DNA from: a virus
DNA length: 12,084 nucleotides
Reading direction: 5' to 3' (one strand)
Virus record (IMG/VR): IMGVR_UViG_3300045988_052544
Shown here: one piece after another, positions 1 to 12,084 of the stretch
Numbering within the stretch: the stretch's first letter is position 1
Layout: every line of letters begins with the position of its first letter
Made by a program: the position numbers and the translations under genes
Notes under the pieces: model-generated
The model's database searches: none
What the model saw: only the letters and a program-made list of their open reading frames with translations
What the model was told of the DNA's origin: nothing

Positions 1-29
1 TGGAGTTCAGACGTGTGCTCTTCCGATCT
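1..29. other. Illumina TruSeq adapter remnant (technical, not biological)
   Basis: tggagttcagacgtgtgctcttccgatct is the 3' part of GTGACTGGAGTTCAGACGTGTGCTCTTCCGATCT. Its exact reverse complement is at 12056..12084. Confidence 0.97.
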
Positions 30-51
30 AAAGGTACACAAAACACGCAGA

Positions 52-90
52 TTTAACATTTCCCAACGCATTTTTAACACTTGGCAACAT
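52..90. repeat. Helically phased AACR/AACAY repeats in the ITR (cluster 1)
   Basis: AACA/AACG/AACA/AACA begin at 55, 65, 76 and 86, giving spacings of 10, 11 and 10 bp. They are embedded in TTTAACAYT-like units. Mirrored in the right ITR. Confidence 0.6.
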
Positions 91-140
91 AGTTTGGCAC
101 GGTTTTTGTTGTGTCGCCTGTACCGTACCCTTTATTATTC

Positions 141-168
141 TTTAACACTTTCAACATTTGTCAACACT
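141..168. repeat. Helically phased AACAY repeats in the ITR (cluster 2)
   Basis: tttAACACtttcAACATttgtcAACAC has AACA starts at 144, 153 and 163 (spacings 9 and 10 bp). TTTAACACT at 141..149 is identical to 73..81. Confidence 0.6.
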
Positions 169-189
169 GCTAAATTTTTGCAAAAGAAG

Positions 190-232
190 TGTTTCACGTG
201 GAACAGTAAGGGCAAATGTTTCATGTGAAACA
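190..232. promoter_or_regulatory. Two operator-like palindromes, TGTTTCA-N2-TGAAACA
   Basis: 190..205 is tgtttca-cg-tggaaca (1 mismatch). 217..232 is tgtttca-tg-tgaaaca (perfect 7-bp arms). Centres are 27 bp apart, upstream of the ITR promoter. Confidence 0.5.
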
Positions 233-283
233 AAGTGTTAACAACTATTAAATTAATTCTTTCACACTATTTAACACAAATAA

Positions 284-315
284 TTTGGTGGTTTCGCAAA
301 TTTGCCGTATCTTTG
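284..315 (+). promoter_or_regulatory. Bacteroidota-type promoter (-33 TTTG / -7 TAnnTTTG) inside the left ITR, firing inward
   Basis: TTTG at 284..287, a 20-nt spacer, then TATCTTTG at 308..315. The core TATCTTTGCA is also found at the internal promoter (5091..5100). The first ORF starts about 40 nt downstream. Confidence 0.65.
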
Positions 316-362
316 CACCGTGTTTAAGAAACAATAAGTTTAACAAATTAATTTAGGTAATT

Positions 363-530
363 ATGAACGAAAATTTTAATGAGACTGTTTTTAACTGTAT
401 TACAAGTGTTAACGCTTTGATGACTTCTAACGAAGTTGCAAAAGATGATAAGGCGGTTATTAAGTTGAACCGCTTTAAGAAATGGCTTAACGAATTCGCA
501 GCAGCTAACGGGGTGAACGAAGTAAAGTAA
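363..530 (+). CDS. Hypothetical small early protein, 55 aa (below the ORF-track cutoff)
   Basis: Hand translation gives ATG 363 to TAA 528..530: MNENFNETVFNCITSVNALMTSNEVAKDDKAVIKLNRFKKWLNEFAAANGVNEVK. It is co-oriented with the whole left arm and is the first ORF after the ITR promoter. An in-frame TAG lies at 354..356. Confidence 0.55.
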   Translation: MNENFNETVFNCITSVNALMTSNEVAKDDKAVIKLNRFKKWLNEFAAANGVNEVK

Positions 531-576
531 ATACCCCTTACAGGTAACAAAAGTTTAACGTTAAATATTTTAAGTT

Positions 577-942
577 ATGGCTAAAGGTTTTAGTTTCGCT
601 AGTACTTTTAATAAGACTAGTTTTGACATTGACACAACGGATTTTCCGTATGTGAAATTGGGTGACATCTATAACGACAAGGAAGAGGGCGGCGATGATG
701 TGGTACACCCTATCAACGGTTTGTACGTTCACATTTCAAAGTTGGGCGATTCACCTGTAATTATTGACGCAGAAAGCAAACGCCTTGTCAATTTGCCACA
801 GTTCACAGGTAACACAATTCGTGAAATTTTGGCTAACGAACAAGCGGTTGACGCTATCAAAGCCAATAAGGTAGGTTATACTATTTATGAGTATGAATCG
901 CACGCTAAAAAGTGTTACGGTATTACCTTTGTAGATAAGTAA
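577..942 (+). CDS. Hypothetical early protein, 121 aa; candidate ssDNA-binding protein (phi29 p5-like by size and position only)
   Basis: ORF-track ORF with an ATG start. It lies in the early operon upstream of the TP/DNAP genes and is followed by an attenuator hairpin. Its size is close to phi29 p5 (124 aa). No diagnostic motif was seen. Confidence 0.6.
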   Translation: MAKGFSFASTFNKTSFDIDTTDFPYVKLGDIYNDKEEGGDDVVHPINGLYVHISKLGDSPVIIDAESKRLVNLPQFTGNTIREILANEQAVDAIKANKVGYTIYEYESHAKKCYGITFVDK

Positions 943-971
943 CATATTGTAGTGTAAAGGGTGATAATTTT

Positions 972-1013
972 ACAGGGGTAACAGTAGTTTTATTGTTATC
1001 CCTGTTTTTGTTT
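972..1013 (+). terminator. Intrinsic terminator/attenuator between the small early genes and the TP-DNAP genes
   Basis: Stem acaggggtaaca (972..983) pairs with tgttatccctgt (994..1005), 12 bp with one G-U pair. The loop is 10 nt, followed by ttttgttt. Confidence 0.6.
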
Positions 1014-1033
1014 CATTTAAACTAACAAATAGT

Positions 1034-1663
1034 ATGGCAAATAAAAACCCTATAGGCTTTAGCGGTCGCACGTTTCGGGCAACAAAAAGGGCGCACGTTA
1101 AAAAAGAAATTATAAATGCTGTTGAGAGTAGTCCATCCCTCAGAAAACAAATATCTAAAGTATTCCAACAGGCAAACAGACGTATACAGAATATTGAAAA
1201 AAACAAAGTTGTTTCGCCTGCTGTTGTAGCATTAAATAAAGGTGACGTAAAGGGATTTACAAAATTTTCTATGCGTCACGAATGGAACGATTTAAAAATT
1301 GAATATTCAAAGGCTATTGCGTTTTTGCAGCAACCAACGTCAACGGCAACGGGAACGGATGAGTATGCAAAACACCTAAAGAAAACTTACAAACTTTCAG
1401 ATGATGAGTTTTCTTTGATGCAAGAAAAATTAATCGGTAAGATTGCAAGTGTATCAGACCAAAAATTTTTGGAACAATATTTAATGCAATATAAAGACTT
1501 TACAGGAGAACTTGAACAGGACGCACGGGACGTGTCCGACCAAATAGAAAGTGACGCTGTAAAGATAGCCGACAATTTACAAAACAGTATCAACAACGTA
1601 GGTGAAGTTGCAGAAGAAACCGTGCAAAAGATTTTAGACACTTTTAAAGATTTTGGTTTATAA
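1034..1663 (+). CDS. Candidate terminal protein (replication primer), 209 aa
   Basis: It lies immediately upstream of the protein-primed DNAP, and its stop overlaps the DNAP start (TAATG at 1661..1665), as in the phi29 gene 3 / gene 2 order. The N-terminus is basic (RTFRATKRAHVKKE, QQANRRIQNIEKNK) and the C-terminal third is acidic and helical (ELEQDARDVSDQIESDAVKIADNL). No catalytic motif can confirm the call. Confidence 0.5.
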   Translation: MANKNPIGFSGRTFRATKRAHVKKEIINAVESSPSLRKQISKVFQQANRRIQNIEKNKVVSPAVVALNKGDVKGFTKFSMRHEWNDLKIEYSKAIAFLQQPTSTATGTDEYAKHLKKTYKLSDDEFSLMQEKLIGKIASVSDQKFLEQYLMQYKDFTGELEQDARDVSDQIESDAVKIADNLQNSINNVGEVAEETVQKILDTFKDFGL

Positions 1664-3873
1664 TGAAGAAAATACCCTTTGAACTACATGAAGAAGTTTA
1701 CACCCCGAAAGATATTGCGAAAGTTTTATCTTTGGCGGTAAACGAAAAAAATTTCACAGGAAACAATAAGGGCAATAAATTCTTAAATGTTCCTGTTTCC
1801 TTTGATATTGAAACAACGTCTTTCTACAGGGACGCAGACGGGGAAACCTACAGTTATGAACGTTATATAAAATTAGGCGGTAAAGATACCAAAATGGAAA
1901 AATGTAGTTTAATGTACGTTTGGCAATTTGGTGTAAACGGTTATTGCATAATAGGTCGCACTTGGGACGAATTTTTAGAAATGTTGTCTGAGATAGTACG
2001 TTTGCTAAACTTAAACCCAAAAAGACGTATTATTATATACGTTCACAATTTGGCTTATGAGTTCCAATTTTTGAGGGAGTTGTTACAATGGGAAAAAGTT
2101 TTCTCTATTGATTTACGCAAACCGATTTACGGGATAACTAAAGACGGTTTAGAGTTCCGCTGTAGTTATTTGTTATCGGGTTATTCGTTGGCAAAGTTGG
2201 GTGAACAGTTACACACTTATAAGTGTTCAAAGTTAGTCGGGGATTTAGATTACAGTCTATTGCGTCACAGTCAAACACCGTTAACGAAAAAAGAAGTCGG
2301 TTACTGTTTGAATGATATAAAAGTAGTTATGTGTTACGTACAGGAACTAATAGAACGTTATAAAGGAATAACGAAACTACCTTTAACTAAGACGGGTTTT
2401 GTACGCAAATATTGTCGTTCTGTATGTTTCAAGAAAACAGACGAAGAAACAGGAAAAACAACACCAAACTTTAAGTATTTCGACAAAATACATGATTTAA
2501 ACATAACAGGTACAGGAGAGTTCGAAATGTTGCAGCGTGCTTTTTCGGGTGGTTTTACACATGCAAATGCAAAGTATACAGACGAAGTAATAGAAAATGT
2601 AGATAGTTACGACTTTACAAGTAGTTACCCCTATGTTATGGTTTCCGAAAAGTTCCCGATGAGTACGGGTGTTGTTGTGCCTGTTAAATCAATGAAACAG
2701 TTTGATTTTATGACTAGTAAATTTTGTTGTGTCTTTGATATTGAGATAACAAACATTTTTGCTAAATCAGAGAACGAAAACCCTATATCGGTAAGTAAGT
2801 GTTTCGTAAAAGAAAATGTTTCTGAGAATAACGGGCGGTTGGTTTGTGCAAGTAAAATCTGTATGACAATAACGGAAATAGATTTTAAAGTATTTTCGCA
2901 GTTTTATTCGTGGGAACGTGTACGTATAGGCAAAATGATTTGTTACCGAAAAGAATATTTACCGACTGAGTTTGTTTTGTCGATTTTGCACCTGTACGAA
3001 ATGAAAACCAAATTAAAGGGCGTAAAGGGAAAAGAAGTAGAATATTTGAATAGCAAAGAAATGTTGAATAGTTGTTACGGCATGTGCGTTACAAATCCGT
3101 TACGCGATGAAATTTTATGTGACGGTGAAACATGGGACGTTGAACACCTAACAGGTATGAAACAGTTAGAAATGCTGAACAAATACAATGACAGTAGAAA
3201 CAGGTTTCTTTTTTACCCTTGGGGTATATATGTAACGGCTTATGCTAGACGCAACCTATTTACGGGTATTTCTGAATGTGGAGACGATTACATTTATAGT
3301 GATACCGATTCGGTTAAAATTATGAACGGTGATGCACACAAAGAGTACTTTAAGCTATATAATGAACTAGCACAAAGAAAATTGCGTGCAGCCTGTAAGT
3401 TCCACAAAATACCATTTGAAAAGGTTGAACCCGTCACGATAAAGGGAATAGCGAAACCGCTTGGTGTGTGGGATTACGAAGGACGGTACAGACGTTTTAA
3501 GACTTTAGGTGCAAAGCGTTATATGGTTGAAGAACAAAACGCACTTACCGTTAACGGTGAAAATTACAATTATAGTATGACTGTTTCGGGTGTAAACAAA
3601 AAATCTGCTATCCCCTACATGTTAGAAACATTTGGGGAAAACGGCATATTTGACGCTTTTACTAATTACTTAGACATACCGCCGACGGCAACAGGTAAGA
3701 ATATACACACATATATAGATTACGAACAGACAGGCACAATAAAAGACTACTTAGGCACGGTTTCAAGTTACGACACGGTAACGGGTGTACACTTAGAGCC
3801 AACGGGGTATACTTTGAGCCTATCAGTACTTTATATAAATTATTTAATGGGTATCAGATTAAAGAAAGAATAA
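1663..3873 (+). CDS. Protein-primed family B DNA polymerase (phi29 gp2-like), 736 aa
   Basis: Exo I is FDIETTS, Exo II is HNLAYEFQF and Exo III is YCLNDIKVV. Pol motif A is DFTSSYPYVM, motif B is KEMLNSCYG, motif C is YSDTDSV and the KxY motif is GAKRYM. About 75 aa separate motifs B and C, consistent with a TPR2-type insertion. Confidence 0.95.
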   Translation: MKKIPFELHEEVYTPKDIAKVLSLAVNEKNFTGNNKGNKFLNVPVSFDIETTSFYRDADGETYSYERYIKLGGKDTKMEKCSLMYVWQFGVNGYCIIGRTWDEFLEMLSEIVRLLNLNPKRRIIIYVHNLAYEFQFLRELLQWEKVFSIDLRKPIYGITKDGLEFRCSYLLSGYSLAKLGEQLHTYKCSKLVGDLDYSLLRHSQTPLTKKEVGYCLNDIKVVMCYVQELIERYKGITKLPLTKTGFVRKYCRSVCFKKTDEETGKTTPNFKYFDKIHDLNITGTGEFEMLQRAFSGGFTHANAKYTDEVIENVDSYDFTSSYPYVMVSEKFPMSTGVVVPVKSMKQFDFMTSKFCCVFDIEITNIFAKSENENPISVSKCFVKENVSENNGRLVCASKICMTITEIDFKVFSQFYSWERVRIGKMICYRKEYLPTEFVLSILHLYEMKTKLKGVKGKEVEYLNSKEMLNSCYGMCVTNPLRDEILCDGETWDVEHLTGMKQLEMLNKYNDSRNRFLFYPWGIYVTAYARRNLFTGISECGDDYIYSDTDSVKIMNGDAHKEYFKLYNELAQRKLRAACKFHKIPFEKVEPVTIKGIAKPLGVWDYEGRYRRFKTLGAKRYMVEEQNALTVNGENYNYSMTVSGVNKKSAIPYMLETFGENGIFDAFTNYLDIPPTATGKNIHTYIDYEQTGTIKDYLGTVSSYDTVTGVHLEPTGYTLSLSVLYINYLMGIRLKKE

Positions 3874-3874
3874 T

Positions 3875-5011
3875 ATGAAACAGAAAAAAGAAAAAGTGGA
3901 AACACCGAAATTTTACAGTTTAAACCGTATTTTGGCAAAAAACGCAGATTACAATGTAATTTTCGGTGAACGCTCCAACGGTAAGACTTATGCAACTTTG
4001 TTGTATGGTATCAAAGAATATTTGAAAACAGGTAAACAAATGGCGTATATTAGGCGTTGGCGTGAAGATTTAAGGGGTAAACGTGCAGAAAGTTTGTTTA
4101 GTAATCATGTAGCCAACGGGGTAATACAGGAACTAACAGACGGTAAGTTTAACGAAGTGTTTTACGTATCGGGTAAATGGTTTCTTTCGTCTTATGACCC
4201 CGAAACTAAAAAGCGTGTACCCGATAACACCCCGTTTTGTTTCGGTTTCTGTTTATCAGAACAGGAACACGAAAAATCTAGTAGTTACCCAAATATAACT
4301 ACAGTCGTGTTTGATGAGTTCTTAACTAGACGTTATTATTTGCCTGATGAATTTATGTTATATATGAACCTGTTGAGCACAATAATACGACAACGTAATG
4401 ACGTTAAAGTTTTTATGCTTGGTAACACGGTAAATCAGTTTTGCCCGTACTTTACCGAAATGGGTTTGAAACAGGTTAGAGTAATGGAACAGGGAACTAT
4501 TGATATTTACCGTTTCGGTGAACACGGTGCAACTGTTGCAGTAGAATACTGTAGTACGATTGTTAAACAAAAAGCTAGTAACAAATATTTCTGTTTCGAC
4601 AATGAAAATTTGCAGATGATTACAGGCGGTAAATGGGAACTTGCAGTATATCCACATTTGCCTGTAAAATACAAACCGAATGATGTTTTATTTGTGTTCT
4701 ATATTCAGTTTAACGAAATGACGTTACAGGGTAACGTTATTCAAGTAGACAACGAAAGAGGGGTTAACAATTTTATATATATTCATAATAAAACGACCCC
4801 TATTAAAGATACAGATAATAGTTTGATTTATTCGTTACAGATGAACGGCAAACCAAACTACAAACGAAAGTTACTGAGTACTGCAAGTTATCTTGAGCAA
4901 CAAATAACAAAGTATTTCGCCACCGATAAGGTATTTTATCAGAATAACGAAATAGGCGAAATTGTACGCAATTATTTAATGGCAAGTGCTCGCAGCAACA
5001 TAATTACCTAA
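3875..5011 (+). CDS. DNA encapsidation ATPase (phi29 gp16-like), 378 aa
   Basis: Walker A is GERSNGKTY and Walker B is TTVVFDEF. The N-terminus FYSLNRIL...NVIFGERSNGKTYA...YIRRWREDL parallels phi29 gp16 FYNPQKML...FVIGARGIGKSYA...YVRRYKPEL. EKSSSYPNITTVVFDEFL parallels EKSNAYPNVSTIVFDEFI. Confidence 0.9.
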   Translation: MKQKKEKVETPKFYSLNRILAKNADYNVIFGERSNGKTYATLLYGIKEYLKTGKQMAYIRRWREDLRGKRAESLFSNHVANGVIQELTDGKFNEVFYVSGKWFLSSYDPETKKRVPDNTPFCFGFCLSEQEHEKSSSYPNITTVVFDEFLTRRYYLPDEFMLYMNLLSTIIRQRNDVKVFMLGNTVNQFCPYFTEMGLKQVRVMEQGTIDIYRFGEHGATVAVEYCSTIVKQKASNKYFCFDNENLQMITGGKWELAVYPHLPVKYKPNDVLFVFYIQFNEMTLQGNVIQVDNERGVNNFIYIHNKTTPIKDTDNSLIYSLQMNGKPNYKRKLLSTASYLEQQITKYFATDKVFYQNNEIGEIVRNYLMASARSNIIT

Positions 5012-5019
5012 TATCTGTT

Positions 5020-5066
5020 AACAGGGGTTAAAAATGTTTTACGTGAAACACTTTTCCCCTGTTTTA
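5020..5066 (+). terminator. Intrinsic terminator ending the left (replication/packaging) operon
   Basis: aacagggg (5020..5027) pairs with cccctgtt (5056..5063), with further internal pairing, followed by a T-rich tract. The loop holds the third TGTTT(T/C)A-N2-TGAAACA palindrome. Confidence 0.6.
5035..5050. promoter_or_regulatory. Operator-like palindrome (third locus) upstream of the internal promoter
   Basis: tgtttta-cg-tgaaaca has 1 mismatch to the ITR sites. Its centre is about 25 bp upstream of the -33 box at 5067. Confidence 0.5.
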
Positions 5067-5098
5067 TTTGGTGATACCAAATAAAAGTATTATCTTTG
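5067..5098 (+). promoter_or_regulatory. Internal Bacteroidota-type promoter for the structural (late) operon
   Basis: TTTG at 5067..5070, a 20-nt spacer, then TATCTTTG at 5091..5098. The geometry and the -7 core match the ITR promoter. ATG 5131 follows. Confidence 0.65.
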
Positions 5099-5130
5099 CA
5101 TCATAAAATAACAAAGTTAAATTTTGCTAT

Positions 5131-5325
5131 ATGGATTTAAACGCTATTGTATCACTAGTTAGTAACGTGGGTTTTCCTGTTGCCGTGTGCATTGCCCTGT
5201 TTTGCTATATGGAGAAACAGAATGAACGACATCAACAGGAAACCGACAAGTTAAATGAAACCGTACAAAGTAACACGAAAGTGTTAACAGAACTTTGTAC
5301 CTTAATTAAAACACTTGTTAAATAA
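5131..5325 (+). CDS. Small single-pass membrane protein, 64 aa; holin-like topology (possibly YvrJ-like)
   Basis: The N-terminal hydrophobic segment IVSLVSNVGFPVAVCIALFCY is followed by a charged helical tail (EKQNERHQQETDKLNE). The stop overlaps the portal start (TAATG). The function is inferred only. Confidence 0.55.
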   Translation: MDLNAIVSLVSNVGFPVAVCIALFCYMEKQNERHQQETDKLNETVQSNTKVLTELCTLIKTLVK

Positions 5326-6317
5326 TGGAGAAAGAAAACTTATATAACAGGTATCAAACAGAAGTTAAAAACAAAGATACTGCATTATTCACATTTATGC
5401 AACGTACTTTGTGCATGACTTCAAAAATGTTTGAGTATACGGGTACACCCGAAACGTTACCGCCTATAGAACTTGAAAAGATTCTGCAAACATCGGGAAA
5501 CGTGGGTATAGCAGAAGTGAACGGTAATTTATACGCACTACAGGGTTCACGGGGTGGAGAATGTGACGCTTACGGGTACGGCAAAGATTACGTGGTTGCA
5601 AACCCTTGGCTACAGTTGAACAAAACCTTTAAAATTGGTTCTGATATTGTCGTTATCAACAACACACCGTTTGCAGATTCAATTTTACCTATTATTGGAA
5701 AATACGGTGTTCTTTACGTTGACGCAACAATAACGCTTAATATGACTAGTATTCTAACTAGAATTTTAATGCTTATTTCTGCAAGTGATGACAAAACCAA
5801 ACAAAGTGCCGAAATGTTTCTGCAAAAGGTTTTAAACGGGGATTTCTCAGTAATTGGCGAAAATGCCTTTTTTAAAGGTGTTAACATGCAAACCCCCCCA
5901 ACAAACAGTAACCAACAGATAACGCAACTTATTGAGTTATTGCAGTATTACAAAGCGTCAATGTTTAACGACCTTGGTTTGAACGCAAACTATAACATGA
6001 AACGTGAACGTTTAAATACGCAAGAGGTTTCAATGAATATAGACGCTTTAATGCCTTTCGTTGATTCAATGTTAAAGGAACGTGTAGACGGTGTGCAAAA
6101 GGTTAACGAAATGTTCGGTACAGAGATTTCCGTAACGCTTGGTTCTAGTTGGAAAATTGAGCACGAAAACTATTTGTCGCTATTACAGGCAACAGAGGAC
6201 GGACACGACCACACCGATACAGAAGACATCGACCCCGTACAGGAAAACGAAACAGAAGAAACAGAAGAAACAGAAGAAACAGAAGAAACAGAAGAAACAG
6301 AAGAAAAAAGAAGATGA
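5325..6317 (+). CDS. Portal / head-tail connector (phi29 gp10-like), 330 aa, with an acidic (TEE)6 C-terminal tail
   Basis: [29 protein letters not shown] parallels phi29 gp10 [44 protein letters not shown]...[12 protein letters not shown] parallels NLEKKERMVTDEVSSN...KINELYGLNVKV. Confidence 0.85.
   Translation: [330 protein letters not shown]
6249..6302 (+). repeat. Perfect 9-bp tandem repeat (gaaacagaa) x6 inside the portal gene
   Basis: Six head-to-tail copies lie at 6249..6302 and encode (TEE)6. They stay in frame at any copy number. Confidence 0.95.
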
Positions 6318-6883
6318 AAATAAATGAACTTTTCACGGGTGAAAATGGTTTGTTTGAAAAAATCTTTAAACCCCTTTTCCCTGTTTTGTATGATTCAATA
6401 TTTGAGGCTGATGACCCAAAAATTATAGATATTGATTTTCGGTTCAAATACGGGGACAGAACTCTAGTTAACGCTATTACAAACGAAACTGCAAATGATA
6501 TTGTAAAAGGTATTATTACGGTAAAGTTTGATGAATGGCAAAAACAGATTCAAGTATTTAAAAAAGAATATGACGTGTTAGACCCTGTTACAGAAAAGAC
6601 AACGGAAACGGTAAATAACACCGTGGACGAAACAGGGAATAATAACACGGTCGATTCAAGTGTAACATTTAATAATGGAGATTTCGGAAATGACACAAAA
6701 CAGCAGCGAGATTCCACAGGGAACAGACAAGAAACAGGCACGAAAACAACTGTTAAAAACGGTGTTCCGTCTAGCGTTCTTACTAGCGAAATTATTCAAA
6801 AAGAAATGAGTTTACGCAAAACTAATTTCAGAACGCAAGTTATAACAGAACTTGCAAAAGAGTTAACAGTAGATATTTATTAA
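6314..6883 (+). CDS. Hypothetical virion protein, 189 aa; candidate lower collar/adaptor or scaffold
   Basis: It overlaps the portal stop by ATGA (6314..6317) and sits between the portal and capsid genes. The central T/N/G/D-rich segment (TEKTTETVNNTVDETGNNNTVDSSVTFNNGDFGNDTK) is flanked by helical ends. There is no diagnostic motif. Confidence 0.6.
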   Translation: MKINELFTGENGLFEKIFKPLFPVLYDSIFEADDPKIIDIDFRFKYGDRTLVNAITNETANDIVKGIITVKFDEWQKQIQVFKKEYDVLDPVTEKTTETVNNTVDETGNNNTVDSSVTFNNGDFGNDTKQQRDSTGNRQETGTKTTVKNGVPSSVLTSEIIQKEMSLRKTNFRTQVITELAKELTVDIY

Positions 6884-6901
6884 TACTTAATTTTTATAAA
6901 A

Positions 6902-8086
6902 ATGGAAGTAAAACAGATTTTTAATTTAGTTAACACCGTATCGGGTGAAGTATTGGGCAAAACTGATTTGGTACATGAAGACTTAACGGGCTTGGTTGAC
7001 CTTGGCACGGAAGTGTTCAACCAAAACGCAGTCGACAATTATGTTAAATCCCTTGTAAACCATATCGGCAAAGTGGTTTTCGTAAACCGTCCTTACAGTG
7101 GTAAAGTTCCTTCTGTTCTCATGGACGCTTGGGAGTTCGGTTCAGTATTGGAGAAAATTTCTGCTGACGTTCCAAACGCAGAAGAGAATGACACATGGAA
7201 CTTACAGGACGGCAAGGAATACAAACAGGACGTTTTCCATAAACCGACTGTTTCCGCTAAGTTCTTCAACTCTAAGGTAACTTTTGAGGTGCCCGTATCT
7301 ATCACGGAAAGACAGGTTAAAGAGTCTTTCAGTAGTGCTGAACAAATGAACGGCTTTTTGTCAATGATTTATTCAGCAGTTGACAAGTCGATGACTATCA
7401 AGACGGACGCACTTATTATGCGTACTATCTGCAACATGGTAGCCGAAACTTTGGACGCAGATAAAACCGATTTCGGTTTCGTACCGTCTACACACGAAAC
7501 AGTCGACTACACTGCTGCTAGTACTGTGCGATGTGTAAATCTGTTGAAACTTTACAAAGACAAGACGGGTGCACAGTTGACCCCTGCAACCGCTATCACA
7601 ACACCCGACTTTATCCGTTTTGCGGCATATATCATGGGTTTGTACTCAGACCGTTTGCAGACCATTTCGACCCTGTTTAACGTTGGCGGTAAGGAACGTT
7701 TCACACCGAAAGATATTTTGCACACTGTTTTGTTGTCGGATTTCGCTTCTGCTGCAAAAACGTATTTGTACGCTGATACTTACCATAACGACAACGTTTT
7801 GTTACCACAGGCTGAAACGGTTGCAAGTTGGCAAGCAACAGGCAAAGATTACGCCTTTGAGAACACTTCAAAGATTGACGTGAAGAGTGCAAGCGGCGCA
7901 AGCGTTTCTATTGGTGGTGTATTGGGTGTTATGTTCGACCGTGACGCTTTGGGTGTAACAAACCTTGATAAGCGAGTAACAACCAACTACAACGCAAAGG
8001 CAGAGTTCTTCAATAACTACTTCAAGTTTGATGCTGGTTACTTCAACGACACAAACGAAAACTTTGTTGTGTTCTTTGTTGCCTAA
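6902..8086 (+). CDS. Major capsid protein (phi29 gp8-like), 394 aa
   Basis: NAVDNYVKSLVNHIGKVVFVNR parallels phi29 gp8 [22 protein letters not shown]. The gene lies after the portal and is followed by a strong terminator, typical of a highly expressed capsid gene. Confidence 0.85.
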   Translation: MEVKQIFNLVNTVSGEVLGKTDLVHEDLTGLVDLGTEVFNQNAVDNYVKSLVNHIGKVVFVNRPYSGKVPSVLMDAWEFGSVLEKISADVPNAEENDTWNLQDGKEYKQDVFHKPTVSAKFFNSKVTFEVPVSITERQVKESFSSAEQMNGFLSMIYSAVDKSMTIKTDALIMRTICNMVAETLDADKTDFGFVPSTHETVDYTAASTVRCVNLLKLYKDKTGAQLTPATAITTPDFIRFAAYIMGLYSDRLQTISTLFNVGGKERFTPKDILHTVLLSDFASAAKTYLYADTYHNDNVLLPQAETVASWQATGKDYAFENTSKIDVKSASGASVSIGGVLGVMFDRDALGVTNLDKRVTTNYNAKAEFFNNYFKFDAGYFNDTNENFVVFFVA

Positions 8087-8105
8087 GTTTTGTTGTTTAA
8101 CTGTT

Positions 8106-8148
8106 GGGTGTGTTTCCTGTAGTTGATAGCACAGGGACACACCCTTTT
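8106..8148 (+). terminator. Intrinsic terminator/attenuator just after the capsid gene
   Basis: gggtgtgtttcctgt (8106..8120) pairs with acagggacacaccc (8131..8144), 14 bp with one bulge and one G-U pair. The loop is 10 nt, followed by tttt at 8145..8148. Confidence 0.65.
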
Positions 8149-8160
8149 AAATTTAGTGGT

Positions 8161-8598
8161 ATGCTGATAAAAACTTATAATTATAATGGAGAACCTAACA
8201 GGGTTAGCAAAACACTCCAGGAAAACGAAGAGTATACGGGTGTATTAAATTCAACTGTAAACGTATTAGAGCCTGTTATCCGTTTTCGTACACGCAACGT
8301 TGTCACGTTTAATTACGTTTATATCGAAAGTTTGAAACGTTATTATTTCGTGTCGGAAATACGACAAGACGGTGATGTTTGCACGGTTTATTTGCGTACT
8401 GATGTTTTAATGACGTACAAAGATAAAATCTTAGATTCTACAGGAACGTTAACAAAGGGTGCAACGGTTAACGGGTATGCGTCAAACCGTTCAAATACTT
8501 ACGATTTGCGCCCTAAACTCAAAAAGCTAGATTTCCCAAACAAAGGGTTATTTAACGATAGTGATAACATTATAATGGTAACTATTAAAGGCAATTAG
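8161..8598 (+). CDS. Tail protein resembling the N-terminal domain of the phi29 gp9 tail knob, 146 aa from ATG 8161
   Basis: NYVYIESLKRYYFVSEIRQDGDVCTVYLRTDVLMTYKDKI parallels phi29 gp9 [45 protein letters not shown]. The ORF-track start at 8104 is a TTG inside the terminator hairpin, so ATG 8161 is preferred. The gene ends in the only TAG stop among the called genes. Confidence 0.65.
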   Translation: MLIKTYNYNGEPNRVSKTLQENEEYTGVLNSTVNVLEPVIRFRTRNVVTFNYVYIESLKRYYFVSEIRQDGDVCTVYLRTDVLMTYKDKILDSTGTLTKGATVNGYASNRSNTYDLRPKLKKLDFPNKGLFNDSDNIIMVTIKGN

Positions 8599-8600
8599 TT

Positions 8601-10448
8601 ATGAGTATAGCGATAAAGAAATTTAACCTGTACGGTGCAACGGCTAATTTAAAAATACAGGGTTTAGACGTTATTTGTACTTTTACGCTAAATACAAATA
8701 CCGTTTGGAACGGTGAACCGTTTACACTTGAATTCGTAGATAACGATAGCAGTTTTCACAACAAAACCGTAACAGTTGAAACTGTAAAAGATAGTACAGA
8801 AGTAATAACAAAAAAGGTTGCGTACAGTTACGCAAGTATGAGTGTTAGCGTTATCGGTTATTCTACAACTTACAACGGTGAACAACTTACTTTAGGCAAT
8901 TTGGTTAATAAAGTCCCACACAGTACGTTAGAACAAATGTATACGGGTGTAAATAGTGATGACGGAAAAAGCGCCTACAGTAGAATAACGTTAAAAGCCG
9001 ATGATGGTTTTAAATTTGTTAACGGTACATTAAAAAACGATATTAATTACGGTTTCGATTATTATTATGATGATAGTGTAGCGCAACAAATTGTTGGTAC
9101 ACCATTAAATAATTTAAATATAGGTTGGGAGTTTACAGGTGAAACGGTTGCAAAAGGAACTGAGATACAAAATAATATAACTGGTAATTGTGAAGAAACA
9201 CACACTATAAACGGTACAAACGTTTCTATAACTATTACGGGTAATAGTGATGCAGCAAAGTTTGTTGGGGTTTCTGTAGAATATACAGACGTTAACGGGG
9301 AAACAAAAACAGTTGTACCCGATTTTACGGGCAACGTTATAAATATCTCTTTAACTGATGTAAAAAAAGGTACAACGGTTATTTTGTCAGGTGCTTACCG
9401 TTTGGTATGTAACACGGTTAATTCTATGACAGGTTGCACCGTAACAGGGTTAAAAGATTATTATATAGAAAACGAAACCGTTAGCGTAATTGCAACGGCT
9501 AGTGGAAAAACTCATTTTGACGCGGCAAATTTGCCTTTGGCTAAATGGGAAATGCTTATCGGTGGAACAGAAGAATACGAATTTACTTTGAGTAACAAAG
9601 GCAAAACGGCAACATTAAATTTTACGTTTCCTAACGACAAAGAAAAAGTTAGTGATTCCACATTTACTTTGTTAGGTGGTACAGTTCCCGACACAGAAAT
9701 AACGGGCTATGGTAGTATTAATGTTTATTTGGTCGACACAAAGACTTTAGAGGATTTTTCAAAAATTCGTTTCACTAAAAAGTTAAATGAAAGTTATGAA
9801 TATGAATACTATGACATCGGGGACTATGTGAACAGGTTACACAAAGTTTATGTAAATGTGCCTAACATTTCGCCTACATCTTTAAAGTTGGCTAACTTTG
9901 ATACAAGTATCACAACAAATAGTGTAGATGATTCTAAAGTACATGTAGATTTCGGTAACGTACTGTTACCTGTTGTTTCGGATAATAGCAACGACTTTAA
10001 CGCTACAATACAATGTTTTATCCCGTTTGTCGGTTTTGTCCCTGTAGATAGTGACTTTATAGGAAAAGAAATAAATCTTAGTTATGATGTAGATTTAGTT
10101 ACAGGATATTGTGCCTATAACTTATTTTGTGACGGTATCACTATTAATAACGGTACGGCAAATTGTAGCAGTGAAATTATTTACAAAACGTTGGCAAATG
10201 ACGAAATAAGCACGGTTGGAGACTTGAGCGACCTTAATACGGTTTTAATGGGTCTTGAACCTTTTATTACTATTAAGTACTTCGACCCTTTAAACGTTCC
10301 TGTTAACAACACGACAGAACAAAAACGTATCGGGGACGTTACAGGGTTTGCACAATTTGAAAACGTTGACTTATCAACAACTAACAGTATGTTAGTTGAT
10401 GAATTTAATGAGATTGTTTCACAACTTGGAAACGGTGTTTATCTATAA
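8601..10448 (+). CDS. Tail knob C-terminal homolog with a large beta-rich N-terminal extension; probable receptor-binding tail protein, 615 aa
   Basis: The C-terminal ~170 aa resemble phi29 gp9. [30 protein letters not shown] parallels [62 protein letters not shown] parallels [34 protein letters not shown]. The N-terminal ~440 aa look like several beta-sandwich modules. Confidence 0.65.
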   Translation: [615 protein letters not shown]

Positions 10449-10451
10449 AAT

Positions 10452-10486
10452 AAAACAGGCGGTAAATATGTTACCGCCTGTTTTTT
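10452..10486. terminator. Bidirectional intrinsic terminator between the convergent operons
   Basis: acaggcggtaa (10455..10465) pairs with ttaccgcctgt (10471..10481) around a 5-nt loop. An A-run lies on the left and a T-run on the right. Confidence 0.8.
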
Positions 10487-10731
10487 CATTTCTTGTAAAA
10501 ATCATTTAATAACCCTTTGTTATTAAGATAAGTTATTAATTTATCCCGTTCTGTTTTATAAATTTGAGCGGTCAACTCTAGAGCGTCAATATATTTTATA
10601 TTTGCCTGTAGAGTGTCAGCACATGAAGAAGTTAACAAACTAGTTTCGCCGCCTGTATTATTTGCTACAACGTTCAAACTTTTTATTGTTATAGCCAACG
10701 AACCTTTTAAAATTTCAAAATTTTCTTTCAT
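10486..10731 (-). CDS. Hypothetical protein, 81 aa, translationally coupled to the endolysin
   Basis: Its start overlaps the endolysin stop by ATGA (10728..10731, minus strand). It looks helical. No transmembrane segment, signal peptide or convincing lipobox was seen. Confidence 0.55.
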   Translation of the reverse strand: MKENFEILKGSLAITIKSLNVVANNTGGETSLLTSSCADTLQANIKYIDALELTAQIYKTERDKLITYLNNKGLLNDFYKK

Positions 10732-11150
10732 TTCTTTTCTAGATTCATTATAATTTGGTTGCGTGGTTTCCCGTTACGATTGCAAACTGAAACGTGATAC
10801 CAAAAAGACGTTGACCCCTTACGGTGTTCTTTTATAAGTTGGTCAAAACCGCCTGTTTCCCTCAGAACCTTTTCTAAAGTTTCCATATCACTACAAACAA
10901 TATCAGCCGCCAAACCTTTTAAGTGTTGACTATTAGCCACACCGCCAACGGCTTTGTTTAACATCGGACATCGAAAACCGCTATTTACTAATATAGGTTT
11001 ACCCAACTTTTCACGTATCTTGTCTAAGTAATCGGCTAAACGGTTTAAGTTGTCGACTACTTCAAATGTAGGCATATTGTCTATACCTAAACGCTTTGCG
11101 GTTGCTGAATTGATGAACTCAGACAATGTAAAATACTTAATTCTTTTCAT
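10728..11150 (-). CDS. Endolysin, zinc peptidase of the Peptidase_M15_3 (M15A) family, 140 aa
   Basis: FTLSEFINSATAKRLGIDNMP...SGFRCPMLNKAVGGVANSQHLKGLAADI...WYHVSV matches the family signature (SxHxxGxAxD plus a downstream His as zinc ligands). Confidence 0.9.
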   Translation of the reverse strand: MKRIKYFTLSEFINSATAKRLGIDNMPTFEVVDNLNRLADYLDKIREKLGKPILVNSGFRCPMLNKAVGGVANSQHLKGLAADIVCSDMETLEKVLRETGGFDQLIKEHRKGSTSFWYHVSVCNRNGKPRNQIIMNLEKK

Positions 11151-11154
11151 ATCA

Positions 11155-11349
11155 TTATTTAGTTGAAACTACAAACCATTTTCTACTCTCTTTGTGTGTC
11201 GGAAAACGTCCCTTTACAGTTACCGAACTATCACCCTGTAAGTAATCGATTTTGTTATTAAAGAACTCGCTTACTTTGTCAGAACGTACCATATAACACA
11301 CTTCTTTACTAGCCTGTTTTAATGTGACTTTGAAATAACTATGTTCCAT
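11155..11349 (-). CDS. Hypothetical protein, 64 aa
   Basis: ATG-started ORF co-oriented with the right-arm operon, lying 4 nt from the endolysin start. No recognisable motif. Confidence 0.5.
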   Translation of the reverse strand: MEHSYFKVTLKQASKEVCYMVRSDKVSEFFNNKIDYLQGDSSVTVKGRFPTHKESRKWFVVSTK

Positions 11350-11365
11350 ATAATAAATAATTTGT

Positions 11366-11389
11366 GCCTGTAGCTTTTATACTACAGGC
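11366..11389 (-). terminator. Hairpin (weak attenuator) between the first and second right-arm genes
   Basis: gcctgtag (11366..11373) pairs with ctacaggc (11382..11389) around an 8-nt loop. The downstream minus-strand sequence is A/T-rich but has no clean U-tract. Confidence 0.35.
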
Positions 11390-11397
11390 GGTTAAAC

Positions 11398-11724
11398 TTA
11401 TGCTATTCTTTCACTTGTTTGTATCAACTGCAAAAACGAACTTGCATCTTTTCCCAACTTGTTACAAAGTTGTGTAACACAGCACCCATATTCATTAATG
11501 TAGTTCAAACTATCTTTTGATTCAAAGATAGTATACACGTCTTTAGTTAACTTTGGCAAACTGTTGTGTTTAATACAGTTAACTTCGTACTCATACATAA
11601 CTTTTGCAACATCTGCAAAAACACCTGTAACTACTTGCGTGTTACGTGTTGTTTCACTCTTTACTCTAACACCTTTAACAGATATAACTGTTTCGAACTC
11701 AAATGTAATTTTATACTTTGCCAT
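11398..11724 (-). CDS. Hypothetical protein, 108 aa, first gene of the right-arm operon; possible C-terminal helix-turn-helix
   Basis: ATG-started ORF downstream of the right ITR promoter. The C-terminal VTQLCNKLGKDASSFLQLIQ has a helix-turn-helix-like pattern. This is weak and from inspection only. Confidence 0.55.
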   Translation of the reverse strand: MAKYKITFEFETVISVKGVRVKSETTRNTQVVTGVFADVAKVMYEYEVNCIKHNSLPKLTKDVYTIFESKDSLNYINEYGCCVTQLCNKLGKDASSFLQLIQTSERIA

Positions 11725-11769
11725 AATTTTGTATTTTAAAGGGTTTAACTTTGTTTCTTAATCACGGTG

Positions 11770-11801
11770 CAAAGATACGGCAAATTTGCGAAACCACCAA
11801 G
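11770..11801 (-). promoter_or_regulatory. Right ITR promoter firing inward (minus strand)
   Basis: This is the mirror of 284..315. caaagata at 11770..11777 is TATCTTTG on the minus strand. The -33 box reads CTTG instead of TTTG because of the ITR mismatch at 11801. Confidence 0.6.
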
Positions 11802-11852
11802 TTATTTGTGTTAAATAGTGTGAAAATATTAATTTAATAGTTGTTAACACTT

Positions 11853-11895
11853 TGTTTCACATGAAACATTTGCCCTTACTGTTCCACGTGAAACA
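11853..11895. promoter_or_regulatory. Two operator-like palindromes (right ITR copies)
   Basis: 11853..11868 is tgtttca-ca-tgaaaca and 11880..11895 is tgttcca-cg-tgaaaca. They mirror 217..232 and 190..205. Confidence 0.5.
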
Positions 11896-12055
11896 CTTCT
11901 TTTGCAAAAATTTAGCAGTGTTGACAAATGTTGAAAGTGTTAAAGAATAATAAAGGGTACGGTACAGGCGACACAACAAAAACCGTGCCAAACTATGTTG
12001 CCAAGTGTTAAAAATGCGTTGGGAAATGTTAAATCTGCGTGTTTTGTGTACCTTT

Positions 12056-12084
12056 AGATCGGAAGAGCACACGTCTGAACTCCA
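12056..12084. other. Illumina TruSeq adapter read-through (technical)
   Basis: agatcggaagagcacacgtctgaactcca is the start of AGATCGGAAGAGCACACGTCTGAACTCCAGTCAC. Confidence 0.97.

Follow-up and report, generated by a model that had tools for sequence, protein, structure and literature searches.

Terminal repeats and physical ends

We analysed a 12,084-nucleotide (nt) stretch of viral DNA, IMG/VR record IMGVR_UViG_3300045988_052544 (hereafter, the window), which carries a long inverted terminal repeat (ITR) at each end. As judged from its sequence, the part from 30 to 12055 is the complete linear genome (12,026 bp) of a phi29-like, Astrithrvirus-related podovirus. The left arm leads into replication genes and the right arm into a lysin gene plus unknowns; Pfam, PHROG and open reading frame (ORF) searches bore out this division, which a preliminary description of the sequence had drawn. 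Alignment of the two arms likewise reproduced the described repeat of ~305 bp, in which 30-334 is the reverse complement of 11751-12055 and the differences lie in the inner part. Exactly four positions differ (left/right: 258 t/a, 259 c/t, 284 t/c and 323 t/a), and the outer 228 nt (30-257) are the same in both arms. A 305-nt repeat with four mismatches is far above chance expectation. The repeat finder, whose output includes adapter sequence, returned arms 1-334 and 11751-12084 (334 nt, 99% complementary).

Positions 30 and 12055 are the physical DNA ends, because the bases outside them are Illumina adapter. The adapter directly abuts AAAGGTACAC in the window and in the contigs of five IMG/VR relatives (L001, L021, L055, L071 and L076), which makes position 30 the true terminal base at the 5′ end. 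Another >12 contigs start exactly with AAAGGTACAC, and dozens of independently assembled relatives begin and end with it. At the terminus the adapter was of the read-2 type in 6/6 resolvable contigs. The read-2 adapter is the strand that ligates to a 3′-OH, and its presence at the termini would be expected if the 5′ ends were blocked by a terminal protein.

The 5′ end reads AAAGG at both genome ends, so a terminal reiteration is present. Sliding-back initiation requires such a reiteration, and phi29 has 3′-TTTCAT (PMC4974454); by analogy, the terminal AAA may permit sliding-back initiation here. Together with the protein-primed type-B polymerase and the terminal-protein candidate encoded by the genome, the terminal AAA suggests that the ITR is the replication origin. 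Relatives of the window also carry ITRs, and those of the cultured relatives are perfect: 84 bp in Astrid, 171 bp in Phanie and 219 bp in DU_PP_III.

Some further observations concern the termini. Adapter contamination is present on the same five IMG/VR relatives and on L078, and marks true termini. The contigs L005, L008, L013, L025, L044 and L060 start with 4-6 A's before GGTACAC rather than with 3; the extra A's could be real heterogeneity from sliding-back, or a library artefact. In L087, a 22-kb MEGAHIT contig, unrelated DNA (1-1120, with a Sel1-like gene) is fused to the phage terminus AAAGGTACAC at 1121, most likely through a chimeric join at the physical end.

Predicted promoters and outer elements of the repeats

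The strict Bacteroidota promoter pattern TTTG-N17-23-TAnnTTTG matched the window at only two sites, 284-315 in the left repeat and 5067-5098 in mid-genome, both non-coding and facing downstream genes. The right arm misses the strict pattern solely through its CTTG. The primary sigma factor of Bacteroidota (sigma-ABfr) has the -7 consensus TAnnTTTG with no G at n, and the element spans -12 to -5 (PMC6847099). With this geometry, transcription would start at ~320 and ~11765 in the arms and at ~5103 in mid-genome, with TTTG at -36 to -33. The start codon lies 41-43 nt downstream of the predicted start at the arm promoters.

The promoter core AATAATTTGGTGG-N16-TATCTTTG was found in 78 of 81 left arms and 71 of 81 right arms of relatives. 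In these 149 arms, the 20-nt box spacing was kept in 148, the -33 box was TTTG in 144 and the -7 box was TATCTTTG in 139, the remainder being single-base variants, whereas the spacer took dozens of different sequences. In sequence comparisons, a promoter is classically recognised by invariant boxes that keep a fixed distance while the spacer is free to vary. That the inner end of each repeat is an inward promoter of the Bacteroidota type, as the preliminary description had proposed, is well supported by the strict pattern match and by this near-invariance of boxes and spacing. The left promoter would drive ORF55, ORF121, the terminal-protein candidate, the polymerase and the packaging ATPase, and the right promoter would drive ORF108, ORF64, the M15 lysin and ORF81. 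The presumed late promoter sits in the sole sizeable internal intergenic gap, before the holin-like, connector, capsid and tail genes.

The anatomy of the repeat further out was derived from an alignment of 61 complete arms of relatives. The terminus 30-47 was nearly invariant and TTTAACATTTCCCAAC (52-67) was invariant. The hexamer TTAACA was ~7-fold enriched in the ITR, almost always in one orientation. A 16-nt palindrome, TGTTTCACGTG(G/A)AACA, occurs in 2-3 copies per ITR; its copies in the right arm of the window lie at 11853-11868 and 11880-11895. Inward of the palindromes come AAGTGTTAACAAC, an A/T-rich stretch and then the promoter. Another copy of the palindrome precedes the -33 box of the mid-genome promoter by 14-17 nt in 78/81 genomes. 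The distance from the last arm palindrome to the -33 box is steady (50-71 nt) while that to the terminus varies; the palindromes thus belong to the promoter and not to the origin core.

Sequence comparison indicates that the palindrome is probably the operator of a regulator. In phi29, the end-proximal early promoter C2 overlaps, and is shut off by, the origin-binding p6 complex, and the regulator p4 binds upstream of early and late promoters (PMC4974454, PMC11476376); p4 and p6 may offer a functional parallel. In our reading, the outer ~200 bp, identical at both ends, is the true ITR, comprising a putative origin, the iterons and two palindromic operators. An internal inverted copy of the terminus, GTACCGTACCCTTT (119-134), was noted and then dropped, as it was not conserved in relatives.

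Arm differences and their origin

Same-strain contigs from other samples were found in ENA by exact look-up of the capsid protein. They differed from the window by one gap and by 0-1 mismatch over 5.6-10.6 kb. Connector lengths differ between these assemblies, which suggests the 9-nt repeat of the connector gene as the place of the gap. The right arms of L219, L220, L223 and L224 carry AT, C and A at 258/259, 284 and 323, as in the window; L224 comes from another project and another assembler. The left arms of L221 (same strain) and L089 (a 99.35%-identical strain) carry TC, T and T. The assemblies with this linkage came from different pipelines (MEGAHIT k127, SPAdes NODE contigs). Because independent assemblies repeat the arm-specific states, the variants are arm-linked and are not errors. 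The earlier view that each variant is linked to its own arm is in agreement with these four right and two left arms, as far as assemblies, which answer here for read mapping, can show.

Position 284 is the first base of the -33 TTTG, and the box is CTTG on the right, as had been described. The -33 box of right arms was TTTG in 67/71, TTTT in 3/71 and CTTG in 1/71, the last being the strain of the window. A 25-mer with the CTTG variant had no match in IMG/VR or JGI contigs, and a scan with the CTTG promoter pattern found it in no IMG/VR relative and only in two unrelated contigs. CTTG is fixed in this strain and confined to it. The two unrelated IMG/VR contigs, L218 (10994-11031) and L217 (3350-3387), have CTTGG-N19-TATCTTTGCA ahead of genes; a -33 CTTG would thus also occur in promoter-like sites of other, presumably Bacteroidota-infecting phages.

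Comparison with relatives placed the four differences in a wider pattern. In 26 genomes with both ends complete, the arms were 100% identical over the first 169-384 nt (median 203), and in most of these genomes 25-56 arm differences followed over the next ~100 nt. The outer 160 nt were 100% identical within each genome and only 77% between genomes. Because the arms diverge past the identical part, the promoter regions of a typical relative fall outside the ITR proper, as paralogues specific to each arm. Among relatives, the type of spacer goes with the arm, and L001, the closest IMG/VR relative, has a right-type spacer on its right arm. The right arm of the window equals that of L001 at 258/259 and 323; between these positions it is left-type, where the right arm of L001 differs at 8 positions.

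The simplest reading of these sequences is that the near-identity of the left and right promoter regions is a derived state reached through conversion. A left-type patch of 41-63 bp, including the whole spacer, would have been copied into the right arm and would have lengthened the apparent ITR to 305 bp. The mismatches at 258/259 and 323 would be leftover right-type bases flanking the patch, and the fourth (284, -33 T to C) would be a new, strain-specific substitution inside it. Repair of a panhandle heteroduplex or recombination between the arms may have been the mechanism. Adenovirus has terminal-protein-primed origins in ITRs of ~100 bp, with promoter and enhancer elements adjacent or overlapping, and its ITR copies repair each other via panhandle intermediates. 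Its hosts are eukaryotes, its sequences and host factors are unrelated, and the panhandle is an analogy only.

Among relatives, left spacer types occur on right arms almost only where both arms are identical (L044, L049, L050, L054, L055, L063, L067, L068, L072 and L076), and right types occur on left arms in L026, L031, L035, L059 and L066. Since both cases occur, the exchanges recur in both directions. A pattern scan with the mosaic-junction 27-mer gave no matches.

Overall, we consider it likely that the best explanation is a composite ITR with inward promoter modules, altered by left-to-right conversion in this strain, in the genome of a phi29-like podovirus. Several points weigh against it. 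The identity of the outer repeat fits concerted evolution, and assemblers also collapse repeats longer than k; de Bruijn assembler output for the outer 228 nt would be alike even with isolated differences between the arms. The direction of conversion is suggested by parsimony against one close relative, L001, together with the arm association of spacers, and a recombinant right arm in L001 would yield the same four-sequence pattern. The 209-amino-acid (aa) ORF owes its standing as a terminal-protein candidate to position and weak homology, and the host searches (contig scan and lysin search) yielded no host.

The rival explanations concern the single base, the assembly and the nature of the conserved sequence. 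The preliminary description had offered the -33 T-to-C change as a possible means by which the two arms are driven at different strengths. In its strongest form, as a selected device that weakens the right (lysin) arm relative to the left (replication) arm, this idea is not supported and appears improbable to us. The variant keeps to its arm, unchanged, in at least four independent assemblies of the strain, the base falls in a recognised promoter element (PMC7366714), and a compensating down-mutation is conceivable once conversion had equalised the promoters. However, all CTTG assemblies represent one strain (0-1 mismatch, up to 10.6 kb), so there is no sign of persistence through divergence, and the variant is missing from every other right arm and every IMG/VR relative. 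The -33 box is the weaker element in Bacteroidota, being poorly defined or dispensable (PMC7366714, PMC6847099), and the arms of relatives differ by whole diverged modules, at the 25-56 positions given above, and not by this base.

It is very improbable that the ITR or its mismatches arose as an assembly artefact or strain mixture, whether by a fold-back chimera, a collapsed repeat or mixed strains. Adapter lies on both contig ends, the outer repeat exceeds any assembler k, and "ITRs" of exactly 55, 99, 119 or 141 nt in some relatives are k-mer overlap artefacts; yet the same terminus recurs in dozens of independent contigs and beside adapters, and the ITRs of cultured relatives are perfect. 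Distances of 11-39 nt chain the four variants to one another and to unique sequence, and assemblies from different pipelines give the same linkage. For the ITR of the window this explanation is largely refuted, and the earlier statement that the repeat is real and not a fold-back holds. Just as improbable is an RNA reading, in which the conserved ITR sequence specifies a structured RNA, for instance a phi29-like packaging RNA (pRNA), in place of protein-binding DNA sites. In phi29 the pRNA gene is close to the left end (PMC11476376), no other non-coding stretch of the present genome is as large as the ITR, and the packaging ATPase is gp16-like. Against this, Rfam gave only chance-level terminator matches, the RNAalifold consensus of 28 arms contained 0 compensatory pairs (covariation term -0.62), the fold energy of the ITR strand was no better than that of shuffles (z = 0.06), and no Bacteroidota-type -7 box is positioned to transcribe the outer ITR. 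A pRNA or other structured RNA in the ITR was rejected on the Rfam, covariation and fold-energy results.

Conversion in the strain of the window may be one instance of a wider process, which we put forward tentatively and regard as rather doubtful. In it, the paralogous inner modules of ~100 bp overwrite each other in both directions in many lineages, so that the ITR boundary "breathes"; the -33 C, arising after conversion, re-tunes the right arm; and the palindromes are sites of one regulator that couples the origin-adjacent early promoters to the late switch, like p4 and p6 of phi29. If this were true, hundreds of natural genomes would record the conversion tracts of a protein-primed replicon. 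The comparison itself indicates that ITR length in such phages is the present position of a moving conversion boundary rather than a fixed property. The moving boundary and the shared operator are the most interesting aspects of the analysis, and neither had been proposed in the preliminary description. ITRs are standard among protein-primed viruses, the phi29-like ones included, as are origins and early operons at both ends, and the known workings of protein-primed phage ends are unchanged by our result. The analysis defines the termini, the ITR anatomy and three predicted promoters of a very widespread clade of ~12-kb gut phages. These data are of use in annotation, help to recognise complete genomes and can serve the construction of Bacteroidota-active promoters or protein-primed replicons.

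Genome, relatives and host

The positions of the features are listed in Table 1. The plus strand encodes, in order, ORF55 (55 aa), ORF121 (121 aa), the 209-aa ORF, the polymerase, a gp16-like packaging ATPase and a holin-like protein, followed by a gp10-type connector, a phi29-type major capsid protein and tail proteins (Pfam and PHROG searches). The four genes of the minus strand at the right end are ORF108, ORF64, the M15 peptidase lysin and ORF81.

Table 1. Predicted and observed features of the window, in order of position
Feature	Position	Strand	Remarks
Illumina TruSeq read-2 adapter remnant, left end	1-29		Not phage DNA; TGGAGTTCAGACGTGTGCTCTTCCGATCT, 3′ part of adapter
Left ITR	30-334	+	305 bp; arm alignment
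Conserved terminal block AAAGGTACACAAnnCAC...TTTAACATTTCCCAAC	30-67	+	Putative minimal origin for terminal-protein/polymerase initiation; >=95% conserved in 61 arms
Conserved block CTTTGGCACGnTTTTTG	92-108	+	Inverted GTGCC partner in most relatives; presumed protein-binding site
TTTAACAC-type iterons	139-170	+	Copy number 1-5 among relatives
Putative palindromic operator 1	190-205		TGTTTCACGTGGAACA; sequence comparison
Putative palindromic operator 2	217-232		TGTTTCATGTGAAACA; sequence comparison
Predicted left early promoter	284-315	+	-33 TTTG 284-287, 20-nt spacer, -7 TATCTTTG 308-315
ORF55	363-530	+	Protein unchanged across strains that differ elsewhere
Terminal-protein candidate	1034-1663	+	209 aa; directly 5′ of polymerase gene
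Protein-primed family-B DNA polymerase	1663-3873	+	PF03175, E 4.6e-15; phrog_1907, E 3.9e-71
Mid-genome promoter (presumed late)	5035-5098	+	Palindrome 5035-5050, 16 nt, TTTG 5067-5070, N20, TATCTTTG 5091-5098
Bidirectional terminator	10452-10484		Strong hairpin between convergent transcription units
Right ITR	11751-12055	-	305 bp; mismatches to left ITR at 11827, 11826, 11801 and 11762
Predicted right early promoter	11770-11801	-	-33 CTTG 11801-11798, 20-nt spacer as in left promoter, -7 TATCTTTG 11777-11770
Illumina TruSeq read-2 adapter remnant, right end	12056-12084		Same TGGAGTTCAGACGTGTGCTCTTCCGATCT

Among solved structures in the PDB, the sole match of the polymerase was phi29 DNA polymerase (E 1.8e-8). 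The 209-aa ORF had no direct family or structure match (Pfam/PHROG); it is homologous to the gene preceding the polymerase in Astrid (E 4e-9) and Phanie (E 1e-7), which a recent review regards as the equivalent of p3, the terminal protein of phi29 (PMC11476376). The small ORFs had no Pfam or PHROG matches. The predicted fold of ORF55 is a helical hairpin (predicted local distance difference test score, pLDDT, 86.6); the model had no meaningful PDB match, and the protein showed no similarity to the first gene of Astrid. ORF55 is a candidate DNA-binding or regulatory protein. The structure model of ORF108 was unusable (pLDDT 42), and exact protein look-ups of ORF108 and ORF64 gave no match.

The whole genome had no megablast match among GenBank phages. 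Its nearest isolates are Astrithrvirus phages: the capsid protein is 55-58% identical to those of Astrid, Phanie and DU_PP_III, whose genomes of 11-12 kb share their gene order with the window. At least 276 relatives were found in IMG/VR, and the exact ORF55 protein is listed in 1331 blocks of a public assembly collection; a review mentions a relative of 12,148 bp predicted to infect Bacteroidales (PMC11476376). The clade is one of very common, uncultured gut phages.

DU_PP_III, an Astrithrvirus-like phage of Pectobacterium, resembles the window in its phi29-like 11.5-kb genome and in its perfect ITRs, and has an inward promoter-like site at the inner ITR edge (TTGACG-17-TAGAAT at 189-217, the same in both arms). 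It differs in that this promoter is of the sigma-70 type (a sequence prediction only), the host is a proteobacterium, the terminus is GGG... and the ITR is shorter. The Astrithrvirus members Astrid (Salmonella) and Phanie (Acinetobacter), with 57-58% identity in the capsid protein, likewise encode a terminal-protein candidate and the polymerase in the left arm, and their right arm holds a short operon read leftward. Their promoter-like sites, unlike those of the window, lie in the unique arms just past the ITR, which is the majority state in the clade of the window. They use Shine-Dalgarno sequences, whereas the window does not. Phanie depends on a helper myophage (PMC11476376).

As is predicted for the window, the Bacillus phage phi29 has early operons at both ends and a central late operon, and replicates by protein priming from both ends, with a terminal AAAG whose reiteration serves sliding-back (PMC4974454, PMC11476376). 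Its ITR is only 6 bp, however, its left early genes read outward, and it has a pRNA, of which none was found here by Rfam or 28-arm covariation. Its proteins are unrelated to those of the window except for the polymerase, ATPase, connector and capsid protein.

No Shine-Dalgarno sequence was found within 25 nt upstream of the start codon of any of the 15 genes, and its absence is a trait of Bacteroidota (PMC6847099). Promoter type and the missing Shine-Dalgarno sequences together suggest that the host is probably a member of Bacteroidota. A scan of genome contigs returned only two contigs from metagenome-assembled genomes (MAGs), both of whole-phage size: L085 (CAAGHI010000088.1) and L086 (JAZRKO010000018.1). 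These MAGs are labelled Gastranaerophilales and Christensenellaceae; the contigs are probably mis-binned and give no host evidence. The lysin search returned >1000 clusters; all of the 120 listed showed 84-93% identity, apparently came from the same phage clade and bore no organism names.

A possible attenuator within the left operon is a second hairpin with a T-run at 972-1005, which separates ORF121 from the terminal-protein candidate. The connector gene contains a 9-nt tandem repeat, GAAACAGAA, at 6240-6311, which encodes a (TEE)n tail. The connector has 330 aa in the window and 333, 336 or 339 aa in otherwise identical assemblies from other samples, and these differences fit changes in the copy number of the repeat. 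The contig of the relative L012 ends inside the same repeat.

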